From contig JBQLZK010000113.1 of assembly GCA_052168235.1 (NCBI GenBank), positions 1 to 13,075 of the forward strand: a DNA stretch of 13,075 bases. The letters run 5' to 3'. Made by a program: the position numbers and the translations under genes. Below, piece by piece: positions 5,997 through 13,075 of the stretch (the stretch's first letter is position 1; each line of letters starts with the position of its first letter). Origin of the DNA: Thainema sp. GTDB lineage: Bacteria > Cyanobacteriota > Cyanobacteriia > Phormidesmidales > Phormidesmidaceae. The notes under the pieces are model-generated. The model was not told where the DNA came from. It ran no database searches and saw nothing but the letters and a program-made list of their open reading frames with translations.

Positions 5997-6513
5997 AGGA
6001 AGTGCTGCTCTCGTTAGGTATAACTTTTGTGTTGTTGTTTAAACTTTGCGCTCGAAACTAAAATTTACGCAGCTTTTTCTAGGGATTTACTGCTAAGAAA
6101 ATGACCAAAATTCGTGGCTAATCAAAACTTAGAATTGATTTAAGATTTCCCTTGGTGGTTTAAAAATCATCCACGCTATGCTGCAAGTGTGTGGCCTGTG
6201 GTGATAGCCCAAGTCGCTATTGGTATAAGTTTCTTTGGCATCAGTAGGCGAACGTAATTCAAAGCACAACAGTTCCCATGACAGAAGTTCACACGACAGA
6301 TCTAAGCTTGGTTGAATTAGTTGAATTAAAAGTAAGCAACCCAGCGTGAATATCTTAATGCTGGATTTGCGATCGCATCATCCATTCCCAAACATCCTCA
6401 AAAAAGCTGCCTACTGATCAAGTATTTCTACTCATCTGTCGGACTCACCAGCCTCATAAAAACCGAACACTAGAAGCAAACATTCACAATCTTAATGATT
6501 GGGAGATCTCCCT

Positions 6514-8835
6514 ATGACCGCAGTGAATTTAAATCAAGAAATTAGTCTTGCGGGACTTAACCTAACCAACCTAAAGCAGCCGGATATTAATACGTTGACT
6601 CAAGTGCAGCCTCACGGTGTGCTGTTGGTATTGCAGGAGTCAGATCTAACCGTGCTACAAGTGAGCCGAAATACCCGCACAGCACTGGGATTGCCGCCAG
6701 AAGAGGTACTCGGCAAAACTCTAGATGACTTACTCGATCCCTATCAGGTTGATCAATTCCGGACTGGACTGTATTACGAAAACTTGGACATTATTAACCC
6801 GACTAAAGTTTGGGTGAAGCGCCAGGGAGATGACTACGGCGTTTACGATGCCATTTTTCACCGCAGCGCAGATGGGTTCTTGATTGTGGAGTTGGAACCC
6901 GCTCTGACGCAGGAAACTATTCCCTTCCTGAGCTTTTATCACCTCGCTAGAGCTTCGATCAGCCAGCTTGAGGCAACGCCGAATCTAGTGGATTTCTGTC
7001 GCATCATTGTCCATGAGGTACGTCGCGTCACTGGTTTTGACCGGGTGATGCTCTACAAATTCGACGATGACGGTCATGGTGAGGTGCTAGCTGAAGAGTT
7101 AGTTGAGGGTATGGAATCCTATCTGGGTCTATATTTCCCAGAATCAGATGTACCACAGCCTGCCCGCAAGATGTTCCTCTCCAATTGGATTCGGGTGATC
7201 CCCGATGCCAAGGCGGAACCTGTCGATTTGTATCCGGCCAATAATCCCGTGACGGGCCAGCCAACGGATTTAATCATGTCCGTTCTGCGTCAGCCCTACC
7301 GCTGCCATATTGAATACCTCAGCCACATGCAGGTGGGATCGTCGCTGACCATTTCGCTGATGAAGGATCAGAAGCTCTGGGGTCTAATTGCCTGCCACCA
7401 CCGTACACCCAAGCAGGTGCCTTACGAACTGCGGAAAGCCTGTGAATTTCTGGGTCGGGTGATTTTCTCTGAAATCTCCACCCGCGAAGAGGAAGCCGAC
7501 CATAACTACCGGATGAAGCTGGCTCAGGTGCAGTCCCGGTTAGTTGACCGGATGGCGCAGGAAGACTACTTCGTGCATGGTCTGGTGCAGCAGGAGCCGA
7601 GTCTGCTGGACTTGGTTGACGCCAAAGGGGCCGCGATTTGCTTCAACGGTCACTGGACAACGATTGGCCGCACGCCGTCTGAGGAAGAGTTGAACTATCT
7701 GGTGCAGTGGCTGAATAAGACCGTCGATGGCGAGATTTTTGAAACTAGTGCGCTGCCATTGGTTTACTCCGATGCCCAGCGATTCAAAGACGTAGCCAGT
7801 GGTTTGCTCGCAATCCCGATCTCGAAGCGCAGCTACGTGCTGTGGTTCCGACCGGAAGTCATTCAAACCGTCAACTGGGGCGGCGATCCGAATAATGCTT
7901 ACACATTAGAAGGTGAAGCTGACAATCAGTGGCTCTGTCCCCGTAAGTCTTTCCATCTCTGGAAAGAAACAGTAAAGCTGCAGTCGCTGCCCTGGAAATC
8001 GGTGGAGATTCGGGCGGCACTAGAACTGCGTAAAGCAATCGTCAACATTGTTCTGCGACAGGCGGAAGAGTTGGCCTTACTGGCTCAGGATCTGGAGCGT
8101 TCGAATGCCGAGCTGAAGCGGTTTGCCTACGTTGCGTCCCATGATTTGCAGGAACCGCTAAATCAGGTGGCTAACTTTGTGCAGCTTCTGGAAATGCGCT
8201 ACGATGCCGAGCTGGGTCAAGACGGTAAAGAGTTTATTGGCTTTGCCGTTGAGGGCGTCAGCCTGATGCAGACCCTGATCGACGATGTATTGGCCTATTC
8301 CAAGGTTGATCTGAAGGGGATTGATCGGGAGCTGATCGACGTGCAGGATTCGCTGGATCAAGCGATGAATAATCTGCGCGGACGGATTGCGGACGCCAAC
8401 GCTGCGATTACCGTGGATTTATTGCCGACCATCGTGGCCGACGGCACGCAGCTCATGCAGCTCTTCCAGAACCTGATTGGCAACGCGATTAAGTTCCGCA
8501 AGCCGTCAGAGCTACCGCGCATCCACATTGGCGTGCAGCGTCAGGAAGATGCTTGGCTGTTCTCAGTCAAGGACAACGGCATTGGCCTTGACCCACAGTT
8601 TGCCGAGCGCATTTTCATCATCTTCCAGCGGCTTCATACTCGGGATGAGTATCCCGGTTCCGGTATGGGACTGGCGATCTGTAAGAAGATTGTCGAATGT
8701 CATCGGGGCCGCATTTGGGTTGAATCCCAAGTGGGAGAAGGCGCAACGTTTTATTTCACCATTCCGGTTGAAGGACGCGATCGCAATCATGGTAATGGAC
8801 GAAAAGCCCAAACGTATCTTTTTGATCGAGGATAA
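6514..8835 (+). CDS. cph1: Cyanobacterial phytochrome (Cph1/CphA type): PAS-GAF-PHY-HisKA-HATPase
   Basis: QPHG PAS start, GFDRVMLY, PESDVP, bilin-binding Cys in the GAF domain (YRCHIEY, codon 7303-7305), LWGLIACHH, WGG and PRKSF tongue, H-box ASHDLQEPL, N/G1/F/G2 boxes. ATG 6514 follows GGAG at 6502-6505. Confidence 0.95.
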   Translation: MTAVNLNQEISLAGLNLTNLKQPDINTLTQVQPHGVLLVLQESDLTVLQVSRNTRTALGLPPEEVLGKTLDDLLDPYQVDQFRTGLYYENLDIINPTKVWVKRQGDDYGVYDAIFHRSADGFLIVELEPALTQETIPFLSFYHLARASISQLEATPNLVDFCRIIVHEVRRVTGFDRVMLYKFDDDGHGEVLAEELVEGMESYLGLYFPESDVPQPARKMFLSNWIRVIPDAKAEPVDLYPANNPVTGQPTDLIMSVLRQPYRCHIEYLSHMQVGSSLTISLMKDQKLWGLIACHHRTPKQVPYELRKACEFLGRVIFSEISTREEEADHNYRMKLAQVQSRLVDRMAQEDYFVHGLVQQEPSLLDLVDAKGAAICFNGHWTTIGRTPSEEELNYLVQWLNKTVDGEIFETSALPLVYSDAQRFKDVASGLLAIPISKRSYVLWFRPEVIQTVNWGGDPNNAYTLEGEADNQWLCPRKSFHLWKETVKLQSLPWKSVEIRAALELRKAIVNIVLRQAEELALLAQDLERSNAELKRFAYVASHDLQEPLNQVANFVQLLEMRYDAELGQDGKEFIGFAVEGVSLMQTLIDDVLAYSKVDLKGIDRELIDVQDSLDQAMNNLRGRIADANAAITVDLLPTIVADGTQLMQLFQNLIGNAIKFRKPSELPRIHIGVQRQEDAWLFSVKDNGIGLDPQFAERIFIIFQRLHTRDEYPGSGMGLAICKKIVECHRGRIWVESQVGEGATFYFTIPVEGRDRNHGNGRKAQTYLFDRG

Positions 8836-9235
8836 TCGGGGCGATATTCGACTGATTCAAGAAGCCCTCAAGAGCAGTAATGTACCTTGCGAGGTCGAGA
8901 TTGCTCGCGATGGCATGGAGGCAATGGCCTACCTGCAGCAGGATGGGGAAGATGCGATCGCACATCGTCCCGACCTCATCCTGCTGGACTTGAACCTGCC
9001 GAAGAAAGATGGTCGGGAGGTGCTAGCTGAAATCAAGGCTGACGAAGCGCTCAAGCACATCCCGATTATCGTGCTGACGACATCCCGCAATGAGGAGGAC
9101 ATTAGCAAGAGCTATGATCTATACGTGAACTGCTATATCTCCAAATCGCGGAATCTAGCGCAACTGTTCAAAATCGTTCGAGGGATTGAGGCATTTTGGT
9201 TAGAGACAGCCAAACTACCGTCCAACGGCCCTTAG
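8789..9235 (+). CDS. rcp1: Phytochrome cognate response regulator Rcp1/RcpA
   Basis: IFLIEDNRGD, PDLILLDLNLPKKDGREVL, VLTTS, NCYISK and FWLE motifs; directly follows cph1. Start is ATG 8789 or 8795, overlapping the cph1 3' end. Confidence 0.93.
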   Translation: MVMDEKPKRIFLIEDNRGDIRLIQEALKSSNVPCEVEIARDGMEAMAYLQQDGEDAIAHRPDLILLDLNLPKKDGREVLAEIKADEALKHIPIIVLTTSRNEEDISKSYDLYVNCYISKSRNLAQLFKIVRGIEAFWLETAKLPSNGP

Positions 9236-11271
9236 GCAAACCGCTCGTCAACGTCCTGCTGATTGAGGACAATGTGGCAGAAGCTCGTCTGATCCAAGAA
9301 GTCCTCAAAGGAACGCCACGCAGCCGCTTTGTCCTGTCCCACGCCAAGCGCTTGGGAGAAGCGATTGAGCGGCTCGGTGCTGATTCGTTTGACGTGGCAC
9401 TGCTGGATCTGACGCTGCCGGACAGTAGCGGCTTGGAGTCCCTGGATCGGCTGATTCGGGATGCGCCAACTCTGCCGATTGTGGTGTTAACGAACACCAA
9501 CGATGATGACTTAGCCGTGGAAGCGGTGCGGCACGGAGCGCAGGACTATCTGATGAAGCGGCAGATGAACCAAGAGCTACTGGTGCGATCGCTGCGCTAC
9601 GCGATTGAGCGCAAGCAAACCGCTGTAGCGCTGCGGCAGGCGAATGAGGCGCTGGAAGAGCGGGTGCAGGAGCGCACAGCCGAGTTAGAAACGGCCAACG
9701 AGCAACTGCGCCAAGAAGTCGTGCAGCGCCAGCGGGTTCAGGAACGGCTGACGTTGGCTCAAAAAGCAGCCAAAATGGGCGCGTTTGAGTGGGATATCCC
9801 CTCGGATCAAATTAGATGGGGCGTGGAATTAGAGAAGAGCGCAGCACAGACTACTGCTGATTCACTCGCATCCTTGAAATCCTCTGTATCAGGCAGCTTT
9901 GGCAACTATCAGAGCAAATGGATCTGGACACTGGATCCCAATGACTTAGAGCGAGTTGAACAGGAATTGCACCAAGCTGTCCAGTCCGGACAGGGGTTGA
10001 ATACAGAGTTTCGTATTTCTGATGATGCAGGCAAGGTGCGGTGGATTGCGATTCAAAGCAGCTTATTTACTAATGTAGCGGGCCATCCTCTACGGCTGCT
10101 GGGCATCTACATGGACATTACCGAGAAGAAGCACCTAGAAGAACAGTTCCTGCGGGCGCAACGGCTGGAAAGTTTAGGGACGCTTGCTAGCGGCATCGCT
10201 CATGATTTAAACAATATCCTAACCCCCATTCTACTAGCAGTCCAACTGCTACCTCGTATGATGCCCCATCTCAATGAACCAACTCGTCAACGGCTAGAAA
10301 TTCTAGAAAATAGCGCTCACCGAGGCGTTGATTTAGTGAAGCAAATTCTTGCGTTTGCCCGAGGAGTAGAGGGTAAGCGCTTCAGCCTGCAAGTTAGCCC
10401 GCTGCTGAAGGAAATTAACAAGTTAGTGCGGCAAACGCTGCCCAAGTCGATTGAAATTCAAGCTGACATTGATCCTAATCTGTGGACGGTGTCCGGCGAT
10501 GCGACTCAACTGCATCAGGTGTTTATGAATCTCTGCGTCAATGCCCGCGATGCGATGTCGAACGGTGGCACGTTGCAAATTACGGCAGAGAACAAGCTGG
10601 TGGATGAGCAGTTGGCTCAACTGCATTTAGAGGCACAGGTTGGACGCTACGTCCTAATCACCATCAGTGATACGGGCTCCGGCATTCCACCCGATATTCT
10701 GCATCGAATTTTCGACCCCTTTTTCACGACTAAAGAGGTTGGTAAGGGTACGGGACTAGGTCTATCAGCGGTTTTGGGAATTGTTAACAGCCACGGTGGC
10801 TTTATTGATGTCGTGAGCGAAGTAGGTAGTGGCAGCCAATTTAAGGTTTATTTACCAGCAACGGAGGAGGCTGTGCCCAAACCGATCGATTCCCTGGATC
10901 TACTGGCTGGACATGGCGAGTTAGTTTTAGTCGTAGATGATGAACCTGCTATCTGCGAGATTACCCAGACGACGCTCGAAGCCTACAATTATCGAGTAAT
11001 AACAGCTCAAGATGGCGCAGATGCGATCGCACTTTTAGCGGAGCATAAAGACGACGTTTACAGCGTCCTGATGGATTTAATGATGCCCAATATGGATGGC
11101 CTGTCAGCTATTCCAGTTATGCGCCGCATTAGTCCTAATCTACGAATCATTGCCACTAGTGGCTTAAACTCTACCGATGCTGCTGCCCAGGCCGAAAAGC
11201 TTGGCTTTCAAGGCTTTTTACCAAAACCTTTTGCGGCACAAGAATTACTACAAATTTTGAGATCAGAGTAG
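9196..11271 (+). CDS. Hybrid sensor histidine kinase (REC - coiled coil - PAS/PAC - HisKA - HATPase - REC)
   Basis: N-terminal REC (LLIEDN, LLDLTLPD), PAC motif (RWI...MDITEKK), H-box GIAHDLNNIL, N-box NLCVNARDAM, FDPFFTTK..GKGTGLGL, C-terminal REC (VVDDE, LMDLMMP, KP). The TTG 9196 start is uncertain. Confidence 0.93.
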   Translation: MVRDSQTTVQRPLGKPLVNVLLIEDNVAEARLIQEVLKGTPRSRFVLSHAKRLGEAIERLGADSFDVALLDLTLPDSSGLESLDRLIRDAPTLPIVVLTNTNDDDLAVEAVRHGAQDYLMKRQMNQELLVRSLRYAIERKQTAVALRQANEALEERVQERTAELETANEQLRQEVVQRQRVQERLTLAQKAAKMGAFEWDIPSDQIRWGVELEKSAAQTTADSLASLKSSVSGSFGNYQSKWIWTLDPNDLERVEQELHQAVQSGQGLNTEFRISDDAGKVRWIAIQSSLFTNVAGHPLRLLGIYMDITEKKHLEEQFLRAQRLESLGTLASGIAHDLNNILTPILLAVQLLPRMMPHLNEPTRQRLEILENSAHRGVDLVKQILAFARGVEGKRFSLQVSPLLKEINKLVRQTLPKSIEIQADIDPNLWTVSGDATQLHQVFMNLCVNARDAMSNGGTLQITAENKLVDEQLAQLHLEAQVGRYVLITISDTGSGIPPDILHRIFDPFFTTKEVGKGTGLGLSAVLGIVNSHGGFIDVVSEVGSGSQFKVYLPATEEAVPKPIDSLDLLAGHGELVLVVDDEPAICEITQTTLEAYNYRVITAQDGADAIALLAEHKDDVYSVLMDLMMPNMDGLSAIPVMRRISPNLRIIATSGLNSTDAAAQAEKLGFQGFLPKPFAAQELLQILRSE

Positions 11272-11289
11272 GGCAAATGGCATTCGTCT

Positions 11290-11649
11290 CTACGCAGGTC
11301 TTCTTTGAATCTGTTGGGTAGTGTCATCAAAACTGCGATCGCATCTTCGGTTTGCACGGTCTGATTGGCCTAAGCCGTAATTTCGGTAACAGTGCCAGAT
11401 GTGGGAGCCTGAATCATACGCAGGTCGCCAACTGGCCGAATGATGGCCGGAGCCTTGGCCGTGACGCTGTATTTGAATAAGCTCGCAAACGTCAACTCCC
11501 CCCCAAAGAGGCCGAGCAAGGCGATGCCGCCCAGTTTCGACCAGCGAGAAATGGGCGGCAAAAACGCGTCGGGGGTGACGGCTCGGAGTAGTATGGGCGG
11601 CTTAACGGTCACATCTGGAGAATCAAAAATTGATGAATGATCAGAACAT
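11290..11649 (-). pseudogene. Truncated HlyD-family membrane fusion protein of the cyanobacterial peptide-export (type I secretion) type
   Basis: FLPPISRW, a transmembrane segment, KYSVTAKAPAIIRPVGDLRMIQAPTSGTV. In-frame TAG at 11370-11372, after which similarity continues (ANQTVQTEDAIAV). A 1-nt frameshift at about 11329-11332 then gives DDTTQQIQ. The rest of the gene is missing. The start region is probably also frameshifted (ATG 11649 is out of frame with GTG 11612). Confidence 0.85.
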
Positions 11650-11838
11650 GAGGCTCATCGCCCAGGTTAAATGATCATAGGATTTCAGCTTAACTCGAAT
11701 ACGCTCATTGTTACCTCCCTGAAGATCGGCCTGAGTCTCTTCAGGAATTTCACACCATAAATTATTACTGGTGAGGCTGTTGCTGGCGCAGGATATTTGA
11801 TGATCTTTTATCTAACTATGTTGTGAATCTAATGTCAT
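11641..11838 (-). pseudogene. Double-glycine leader peptide gene 5 (core resembles ribosomal protein uS10 N-terminus), interrupted by an in-frame TAG
   Basis: Manual translation: MTLDSQHS*IKDHQISCASNSLTSNNLWCEIPEETQADLQGG|NNERIRVKLKSYDHLTWAMSLMF*. GGAG lies 8 nt before ATG 11838. TAG at 11812-11814. Confidence 0.75.
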
Positions 11839-11862
11839 TGATTTCACTCCCAAATATCGCGA

Positions 11863-12027
11863 TTAGATACCACTTTGTTGAGCAACGTGAGTTAGTTCAT
11901 GGGCTAGAAGACTGGATCCTCCAGAGAAAACTTGTGTCTCACAATCAGACAATTCAGTAAAATGCTTAGTCAGGTTTTCAAGATTAGAGCATTTATTTTG
12001 CTTATTTTGCTTATTTTGCTTATTCAT
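11863..12027 (-). CDS. Double-glycine leader peptide gene 4, 54 aa (core resembles the DUF4157 HExxH motif)
   Basis: Manual translation: MNKQNKQNKQNKCSNLENLTKHFTELSDCETQVFSGG|SSLLAHELTHVAQQSGI*. Intact ORF below the ORF-track size cutoff. Confidence 0.85.
   Translation of the reverse strand: MNKQNKQNKQNKCSNLENLTKHFTELSDCETQVFSGGSSLLAHELTHVAQQSGI
11993..12024. repeat. 9-bp tandem repeat (TTATTTTGC) x3.5 encoding NKQ repeats in the leader of peptide 4
   Basis: Copies at 11993, 12002 and 12011, plus a partial copy at 12020. Confidence 0.9.
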
Positions 12028-12163
12028 TGTTCTCAATTTAATTCGAGATCACCCAATCTGCGATCGCAGCCCCATCTCTAAACGATTCTGGAAGTGCGAT
12101 CGCAAACTCTAATTCAGGTTAAGACAGCCAGATCAAAAAACTGAATTTCAAACCTGGAGCTTA

Positions 12164-12318
12164 TCAAGTACCACCTTGTCCTGAACCATCACAAGGAAAC
12201 GAGTAGCCGAAATCTTTGCCTCCGCTAAGAGTTGATTGCGTATCGTTCGACAGCTCTTGCCAAAGTGATGGTTTAGTTAACAAGTGTTGGGGGAAGGCTT
12301 TGCAATATTACGTTTCAT
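12164..12318 (-). pseudogene. Double-glycine leader peptide gene 3 (core resembles the PsaB FX-binding loop), 1-nt frameshift in the leader
   Basis: Adding one base to the G5 run at 12289-12293 gives MKRNIAKPSPQHLLTKPSLWQELSNDTQSTLSGG|KDFGYSFPCDGSGQGGT*. As written, the ATG 12318 frame stops after 13 codons. An in-frame TTG could give a shorter leader. Confidence 0.8.
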
Positions 12319-12378
12319 AGGATTTTCCAGTTACAGCAAAGTGTCTGACGATAAAGGATACAGCTAGAGCTGCTAGTC

Positions 12379-12600
12379 TTACGCATCCACACGTCCGCGC
12401 AAAGTTGCAAGTTCCGCTGAAAACTCTTCTTGGAGCCGTTGGGTGTTACTGGTTGCTGCCGCAAAGAGGAAAATTACGCTGCCGCCTGAGATTGCTTCCG
12501 TTTCGTTTTCTGAAAGCTCTATTGCATCAAGGACAGGCAAAAGCTCGAGTTGATTTTGGTGTTTACCAGGTAAACCGTTTCTAAATTTTTTATTCTTCAT
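12379..12600 (-). CDS. Double-glycine leader peptide gene 2, 73 aa (core ends in an SLH-porin coiled-coil motif)
   Basis: MKNKKFRNGLPGKHQNQLELLPVLDAIELSENETEAISGG|SVIFLFAAATSNTQRLQEEFSAELATLRGRVDA*. AAGGAG (12607-12612) lies 6 nt before ATG 12600. Confidence 0.85.
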   Translation of the reverse strand: MKNKKFRNGLPGKHQNQLELLPVLDAIELSENETEAISGGSVIFLFAAATSNTQRLQEEFSAELATLRGRVDA

Positions 12601-12686
12601 GAGCATCTCCTTTCCCTCAAAAGGGAAACAGGCTGGAATAGAATTTATTCGACTAAATTGCAATTTTATGATCGCAAATTTATATA

Positions 12687-12863
12687 CTAAAACTCTCCTC
12701 TCGCATCTGCTTGGACAACAACCTTCGTGAAGGCATCAAACATTCCGCCTTGAATTCTGCTCTGAGTCGTTTCAGGAATATCTTGAAGGAATAATATTTT
12801 CTGAATTTGTAGATATTTAGAAGAAAGCTGTCTCATGTTTGGTTTGGTTTGAGTACAGGCCAT
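12687..12863 (-). CDS. Double-glycine leader peptide gene 1, 58 aa (core resembles the phycocyanin beta N-terminus)
   Basis: Manual translation: MACTQTKPNMRQLSSKYLQIQKILFLQDIPETTQSRIQGG|MFDAFTKVVVQADARGEF*. AAGAGG lies 7 nt before ATG 12863. Confidence 0.85.
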   Translation of the reverse strand: MACTQTKPNMRQLSSKYLQIQKILFLQDIPETTQSRIQGGMFDAFTKVVVQADARGEF

Positions 12864-12965
12864 TGATAAACCTCTTTATAGATGTACAAATGTAGTTGAT
12901 CTATGCAGGCTGGGTGAAACAGCAGATGACTAATAGACTTTATTGGAAGTAAAGTTTTTGGGGTT

Positions 12966-13012
12966 GGAAATTGTTTTGTAGCGCGGCGGAGCCGCGCTAC
13001 AAAACAATTTCC
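12966..13012. repeat. Perfect 22-bp inverted repeat with a 3-nt loop (REP-like / small dispersed repeat, or terminator-like hairpin)
   Basis: GGAAATTGTTTTGTAGCGCGGC-GGA-GCCGCGCTACAAAACAATTTCC. Confidence 0.85.
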
Positions 13013-13075
13013 GATAAGGTCTATAGCGGTTCTCATTCGAATGAGGTACAGTAGCAGTCGTTTATGAACCAGTTG

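Follow-up and report, generated by a model that had tools for sequence, protein, structure and literature searches.

Arrays of double-glycine peptides in cyanobacteria that carry copies of conserved protein motifs and look like an undescribed kind of molecular mimicry

ABC exporters with a C39 peptidase domain and an HlyD adaptor cleave precursor peptides after a double glycine (GG) and export them, which is established GG/PCAT biology. To our knowledge, no function has been assigned to hundreds of GG precursors from cyanobacteria. Cyanobacterial GG "bacteriocin" clusters share tandem GG precursors, PCAT, HlyD and sometimes an S8 peptidase with the arrays studied here; in the accessible part of that report their cores are diverse and little conserved, with no mention of protein likeness, whereas the cores described here combine conserved motifs into mosaics (Wang et al. 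2011, PMC3140520). The leader of the present arrays is similar to the CTB leader (NF038167). The EbfG1–4 proteins of Synechococcus elongatus are also small GG proteins exported through a C39 transporter, PteB, and their secretion has been proven experimentally; compared by description only, they differ in their biofilm role, and no motif copying is reported in the accessible text (PMC4997328).

RaxX of Xanthomonas and the decoy idea for Bodo saltans virus are functional analogues. RaxX has a single target, the plant PSY hormone, and requires sulfation (PMC6637879, accessible text), unlike the present arrays, whose bacterial targets are many and unrelated and which have no apparent modifying enzyme. 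Ankyrin ORFs of Bodo saltans virus likewise reuse fragments of conserved essential proteins in accessory genes and were proposed to be decoys, but as portrayed in the available sections they are viral, intracellular, ankyrin-fused and self-derived only, not free exported peptides (PMC5871332). Bacterial STAND (Avs) receptors show that receptor repertoires for conserved core proteins, the type of reader needed here, exist; however, according to the accessible part of the source, what they detect is the fold of intracellular phage proteins and not a short linear peptide, and none is reported there for these motifs (PMC13581612). Modified RiPPs such as prochlorosins and cyanobactins have a linked modifying enzyme; among the long ORFs of these arrays none was seen apart from a PatG-type S8 protease. 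The main texts of openly accessible papers yielded no account of motif libraries with multiple targets. The machinery for export is known, while the cargo, whose design is real and selected, is new and apparently undescribed.

The array in Thainema and its probable continuation

The window (the whole stretch of 13,075 nucleotides that was analysed) is the entire contig C113 of the Thainema sp. host genome (G000). The following features were identified:

12687..12863, minus strand: g1, a precursor of 58 aa with a GG leader and a core (12690-12743) that is a copy of the CpcB N-terminus (MFDAFTKVVVQADARGEF)
12379..12600, minus strand: g2, a precursor of 73 aa with GGAG upstream; the C-terminal part of its core (12382-12480) is a SomB porin coiled-coil segment
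12164..12318, minus strand: g3, with a core (12167-12217) that is a copy of a PsaB loop (KDFGYSFPCDGSGQGGT)
11863..12027, minus strand: g4, a precursor of 54 aa with a core (11866-11916) that is a copy of the HELTH segment of eCIS_core (DUF4157)
11641..11838, minus strand: g5, with a core (11644-11712) that joins a piece of the uS10 N-terminus to one resembling PsaA; broken by a TAG at 11812-11814
11304..11612, minus strand: hlyD remnant with a stop at 11370-11372, a 1-base gap and the remainder deleted (DNA alignment)
12932-13021, no strand assigned: palindromic dispersed repeat of ~90 bases with 95 BLAST matches in the host genome (palindromes counted twice)
13022-13075, no strand assigned: 54-base end repeat at the contig break, probably an IS end; 19 copies, all but one at contig ends

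The five co-oriented GG leaders with cores that the original prediction had placed here were confirmed, all on the minus strand. It had given the cores a size of roughly 17–20 aa, which fits g1, g3 and g4 (18, 17 and 17 residues) but not g2 and g5 (33 and 23), so that the range is 17–33. The GC content of the array was 41%, compared to 50% in the remaining window. HIP1 sites were located inside the array at 12060 and 12096, and the g4 leader contained an NKQ tandem repeat. Rfam gave no match over 11200-13075. Sequence features at 6499-11271 indicated a phytochrome-like histidine kinase, a response regulator and a hybrid kinase, which are unrelated to the array.

The host copy of the array is partly pseudogenised: g3 is frameshifted, g5 carries a stop and hlyD is truncated. 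The likely ATG of g3 (12318) is out of frame with the leader, and the sole in-frame start is a TTG at 12283 without a clear RBS. A contig of run X7 has four extra bases at 12291-12292, which bring the likely ATG of g3 into frame, and its hlyD is free of the stop. Gene g5 is intact in genome G001, and its TAG, which recurs in X6, is missing from the X3 and X7 contigs. Over 97 aa, the hlyD remnant shared 81% identity with the intact HlyD of G001; the hlyD adjacent to the array is thus a broken gene, and an intact hlyD paralogue lies on host contig C41. Since g5 and hlyD are intact in G001, the g5 stop is missing from the X3 and X7 contigs, and the hlyD stop and the g3 frameshift are missing from that of X7, we regard the lesions as strain-level decay. 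An assembly artefact was ruled out by homologous DNA in G001 and in runs X1, X3, X6 and X7 (four of the seven listed runs were covered, and X1 may be the source sample) and by the HIP1 sites.

A second host contig, C46, ends in a GG ORF that points toward the contig end and whose entire core is the AtpE C-terminus. Divergent from this ORF are two AraC genes, two further GG ORFs, one of which terminates in an 11/11 PsaB piece, and a C39 exporter with PF03412, ABC_membrane and ABC_tran domains and visible Cys, His and Asp motifs. C46 and C113 are probably one locus; we infer the join from gene order and not from overlap, because exporter, AraC, array and hlyD are grouped in G001, G062, G084 and G384 (in G001 also split over two contigs). 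The host additionally has a solitary GG-leader ORF (L156, C12:101030-101287), whose 13-residue core had no Pfam match.

Sources of the cores and related arrays

In a profile library, the g1 core matched positions 1-17 of CpcB (TIGR01339, E 1.3e-3), and g2 matched both the SomB porin (NF033921, E 5.7e-5) and the CTB-bacteriocin leader (NF038167, E 4.9e-4). The g3 and g4 cores matched PsaB (TIGR01336, E 3.2e-5) and eCIS_core (PF13699, E 1.3e-5), respectively. The g5 core was the weakest of the five, with uS10 at E 0.066 in the library; a PDB search reached E 0.044, and each of its 18 matches was uS10. The best PDB match, 7jil, is presumably a Flavobacterium ribosome. Its relative in G062 reached uS10 at E 7.4e-4, and the g5 motif drifts in G001 and run X7. 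Among the sources named in advance, CpcB, the SomB porin coil, PsaB and DUF4157 were thus recovered, and uS10 only weakly. The assumption that each gene imitates one protein proved too simple, because many cores combine two or three motifs of a shared pool, as g5 does with its uS10 and PsaA-like pieces.

The copies were often closer to the family consensus or to another organism than to the host allele (g1, g2, g5). The g1 core was identical to host CpcB at 14/18 residues and to G084 CpcB at 16/18, and the g2 core segment matched the consensus of 14 porins at 17/18 residues versus 15/18 for the best host porin. Copies of uS10 were identical to host uS10 at only 5/12 and 10/14 residues. The g2 core has an orthologous core in G062; a protein search with g2 found, among 7 candidates, g2 itself and porin fragments only, and the ESM Atlas gave nothing usable with g2 and P0022.

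Our survey started from HlyD homologues in 94 of 401 cyanobacterial genomes and examined the best 80 of ~150 HlyD places listed outside G000 and G001, plus 20 leader-profile matches. Of ~400 cyanobacterial genomes, at least 10 had motif arrays; most of these arrays adjoin HlyD or a C39 exporter, and AraC often accompanies them. Homologous arrays show the same mimicry, as had been expected: the motif pool is recombined in arrays of G001, G062, G095, G407, G084, G384, G368, G262 and G266, with motifs recurring at new positions and in new joins. Supported sources were CpcB, SomB (coil and N-terminal box), PsaA/B (four segments), AtpE (two), uS10 and PilA, together with EF-Tu (E 0.0093) and, as a further member of the pool, the DUF1559 pilin helix; an H-X9-DG match was weak (E 0.054). 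We take the EF-Tu piece to overlap the plant elicitor elf18, and the porin C-terminal piece to be the beta-signal.

G087 and G350 are candidate motif arrays that share motifs without an assigned source with G368. Many cores of G368, G262, G087 and G350 had no library match. For some of them we had presumed the labels Hcp, tail-tube, RHS and kinase, which found no support in Pfam, NCBIfam, PHROGs or PDB, and a trypsin-like end in a G262 core reached E 0.33 only. Most other HlyD-linked arrays had ordinary cores of the CTB-like, Arg-rich or Cys-rich type. At L059, L064, L068, L070, L083 and L099, the GG precursors beside other HlyD genes had cores that were extremely rich in Arg, and a collagen-repeat/Peptidase_S74 gene lies inside the G001 array (L025:10732-12126).

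The motif arrays are patchily distributed over at least five families. In a quick HlyD tree the motif loci clustered (6 changes versus 10.6 in shuffles) but did not form one clade, which, together with near-identical arrays in different families (G095/G407), suggests that the arrays spread laterally.

Of 72 motif-array leaders, 70 had G at -2, 71 had G at -1, 71 had L/I at -12 and 64 had I/L/V at -4. The classical GG leader has a hydrophobic residue at -7, whereas Q, S or A stood there in 69/72 motif-array leaders; Q at -7 is also frequent in ordinary CTB leaders. Compared to the CTB family cut-off of 32 bits (NF038167), g2 scored 20.2 and g3 13.3, and g1 and g4 had no match; these genes cannot be filed as bacteriocins. 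The predicted tie of the GG-leader peptides to a C39 exporter and HlyD held up, with PCAT at 10/13 motif loci; in the host the link would run across the contig break.

AraC was located beside 6/13 motif loci versus 1/89 other loci. Beside AraC and upstream of six arrays (L037, L038, L039, L151, L155 and L026), tandem GCAAGA boxes ~21-22 bases apart were recognized by eye, and we consider them a candidate AraC operator. Among long ORFs at motif loci no modifying enzyme was seen apart from a PatG-type S8 protease at 2/13. In these two genomes, G095 and G407, the protease lies between array and hlyD (L038:3279-5219, L039:9433-11373) with no C39 exporter in the stretch examined, and may provide an alternative processing route. 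The arrays had no ORF of at least 250 aa except the exporter, AraC, S8, STAND and a few inserts, and no immunity gene was apparent in the listed arrays, including that of G062, with small ORFs covered unsystematically. STAND genes of the NB-ARC (WD40) type are neighbours of the G368 and G262 arrays, which have no AraC, and of a candidate array in G376 (L042, L148, L154); close NB-ARC relatives were also found beside non-motif arrays (L158, L159).

The pilin motif was also found outside the arrays. A 2,643-aa RTX-repeat protein of the host (L206, C25:62779-70719) carries two DUF1559-like pilin motifs in a low-complexity linker, a pair that is kept in G001 (L215) and G291 (L210), and the motif recurs in the signal-peptide protein P0105. 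The last 19 residues of P0006, which is apparently secreted, are identical to those of a G368 core. GG peptides with the pilin motif, several of them mosaic, occur outside cyanobacteria in Alphaproteobacteria (a cluster member labelled Rhodobiaceae and a protein from a Pseudomonadota MAG). In the five genomes checked, LLPA[VI]QxARE was confined to arrays or the RTX protein. However, a membrane protein of 197 aa with a pilin-like look (L211-L214, 4/400 genomes, genus g18) has LLPAIQAARE after a hydrophobic helix, so that the motif is not strictly foreign. The non-self bias of the sources may merely reflect horizontal array transfer. In the cyanobacterial assembly G091, a DUF1559 prepilin gene at the edge of contig C122 (L209) has GC-rich codons and is probably contamination.

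A 401-genome sample of one proteobacterial phylum (that of G420) yielded one weak match without the motif, which was rejected. A representative search with the G095 CpcB-porin precursor gave three matches, and P0008 from this search was dropped as a chance repeat match. In metagenomes, the GG+CpcB pattern had 0 matches, and the one match of the pattern GHGYIKIKKL, antisense to an HTH-like gene, was judged to be chance. In viral contigs, the GG+pilin pattern had 0 matches, while the plain pilin motif was in frame in 79 of the 80 listed of 98 matches, all ordinary prepilins. The plasmid search gave no match.

Chance and selection

To compare the cores with chance expectation, 178 distinct cores and 3,560 shuffled cores were searched against 9,637 ORFs of the host genome, with the 99th percentile of the shuffles at 32.6 bits. 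Four of the five window cores exceeded this value and g5 did not. Overall, 27/178 cores exceeded it, and after one self-hit was dropped 26 remained versus ~2 expected, so the cores beat shuffled controls as predicted. All 26 were in motif arrays of nine genomes (26/77 cores; four match the RTX-borne pilin motif only), and 0/100 cores from other loci passed; because the leader profile was derived from motif arrays and cores were grouped by their matches, such comparisons of arrays with other loci are not independent tests, whereas the excess of 26 over ~2 is independent of the grouping. A panel of 11 proteins was matched by 38/77 array cores versus 8/154 shuffles.

Residue identity to cyanobacterial source proteins was mostly 70-100% (lower for uS10). 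Among identical residues, about one codon in three was identical in all six genomes compared (chance ~0.35), for example 5/13 for g1, 7/15 for g3 and 1/12 for the G062 AtpE copy versus host genes, and 7/18 for the G095 PsaB copy, which is identical at 18/18 aa. Recent copying from host genes was ruled out by these near-chance codons. Copies in distant arrays shared 193/470 codons (0.41; chance 0.35), compared to 84/110 in close pairs; the motifs may have arisen through ancient capture or through convergence. Across 17 orthologous pairs, the cores had pS 0.325 and pN 0.145. In 11 pairs, motif codons had pS 0.416, pN 0.126 and pN/pS 0.30, versus pS 0.279, pN 0.173 and pN/pS 0.62 in the linkers, a modest pN difference between pairs that are not independent. 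The copied segments were usually, but not always, conservation peaks of their source proteins (percentiles 39-99, with small homologue sets).

The kept residues, the near-chance codons and the motif pN/pS of 0.30 argue for selection at the peptide level. Judging from the sequences, we consider it very probable that selection acts on the peptide sequence and that the anatomy of the arrays is as described. The arrays look like an undescribed kind of molecular mimicry in which both own proteins and those of other bacteria are copied.

What the exported motifs may do

We propose that the host locus is a decaying exported motif library whose segments could well engage, as decoys or ligands, receptors by which other organisms read sequences, a reading that we prefer without holding it firmly. 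An AraC regulator would switch on the array of GG-leader precursors, and the C39-peptidase ABC exporter with HlyD would, by analogy with described GG systems, cut after GG and secrete unmodified peptides of 10-60 aa. Each core holds one to three segments of 8-20 aa copied from conserved protein parts, with abundant cyanobacterial CpcB, PsaA/B, AtpE, SomB, PilA and EF-Tu plus eCIS_core as sources, joined by putative non-self ones, namely other bacteria's DUF1559 pilin helix and a heterotroph-type uS10; selection preserves their amino-acid sequence. In a biofilm, the segments would act as context-free linear epitopes that bind foreign sequence-reading receptors or attack proteins. Grazers, predatory bacteria and competitors are candidate readers, for which the peptides would be decoys or false signals.

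The linear-epitope reading is favoured over its rivals because the motifs apparently have their functional place at either peptide end, in an RTX linker and at the ends of signal-peptide proteins, because a cysteine is dropped from some copies, and because no immunity or modifying gene is apparent. The PsaB copies of g3 and G407 end before the second cysteine, which is an iron-sulphur ligand in the native loop. Conflict-like dynamics (patchy spread, near-identical arrays across families and decay in the host) were also counted in favour of decoys.

It is unlikely that the peptides are microcin-like poisons that block assembly in competitors, each motif binding whatever the copied protein natively pairs with, such as CpcA, the porin trimer, the c-ring, the pilus or Omp85 (through the porin C-terminal strand). 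GG export is a microcin route according to the accessible text of PMC10233263, native termini are often kept (CpcB, uS10 and EF-Tu copies at core N-termini, AtpE and porin C-terminal copies mostly at core C-termini), and the near-complete conservation of residues would fit a native interface. However, self-type motifs would harm the producer, no immunity gene was apparent among array ORFs of at least 250 aa or in G062, the truncated PsaB copies lack the second cysteine, and entry into a cell would be difficult for a motif held in an RTX linker. Some of the PsaA/B and AtpE segments that were copied, moreover, are presumably buried in the membrane, which also speaks against a blocked assembly.

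An alarm in which the peptides imitate fragments of lysing kin or attackers, read by the producer's own AraC or NB-ARC/WD40 sensors, would account for the AraC linkage and for the NB-ARC-WD40 genes beside the G368 and G262 arrays, and kin lysis is a danger signal in Pseudomonas aeruginosa (cited in the accessible part of PMC13398385). We consider it improbable, since a signal would not require a library of 15+ motifs, close NB-ARC relatives stand beside the non-motif arrays L158 and L159, and, in the account available from the same source, the flocculation of Synechocystis was not obviously affected by broken kin cells (PMC13398385). Matrix or adhesion peptides like EbfG1–4, which according to the accessible text are GG proteins exported by PteB and required for biofilm (PMC4997328), might pair like with like on exposed porin, pilin or debris, and the pilin motif in the surface RTX-repeat protein agrees with such a role; it does not account for motifs from the cytoplasm and the thylakoid (EF-Tu, uS10, PsaB) being copied exactly, and we judge it highly improbable. 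Neutral capture of fragments from highly expressed or environmental genes behind GG leaders, followed by decay, would fit the broken g3, g5 and hlyD of the host and the abundant or multi-copy genes that make up most sources. It is largely refuted, and we give it hardly any weight: residues are 80-100% kept with codons near chance, pN is below pS, all five cores of the window are in the sense orientation and in frame, and the motifs reappear in different families and in a second phylum.

If the decoy or ligand reading is extended, several phyla might, and we say so only tentatively, export a shared vocabulary of core-proteome epitopes, which would imply an undiscovered receptor repertoire, with the arrays as anti-recognition decoys. 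This vocabulary would possibly comprise segments of the photosystem, ATP synthase, EF-Tu, ribosome, porin, pilins and injection machines, and receptors in microbes or micro-eukaryotes could perhaps read them as signals of prey, kin damage or attackers. The cores of motif arrays are readable, in that each would name a protein segment that something extracellular must recognise residue by residue, so that recognition of prey, kin and foe among microbes becomes testable with cheap synthetic peptides. If the peptides are inhibitors instead, they would be natural peptide leads against porin insertion or the assembly of pilus, c-ring or photosystem; if the epitope vocabulary is real, the motif list would be a ready-made ligand map for finding the receptors.
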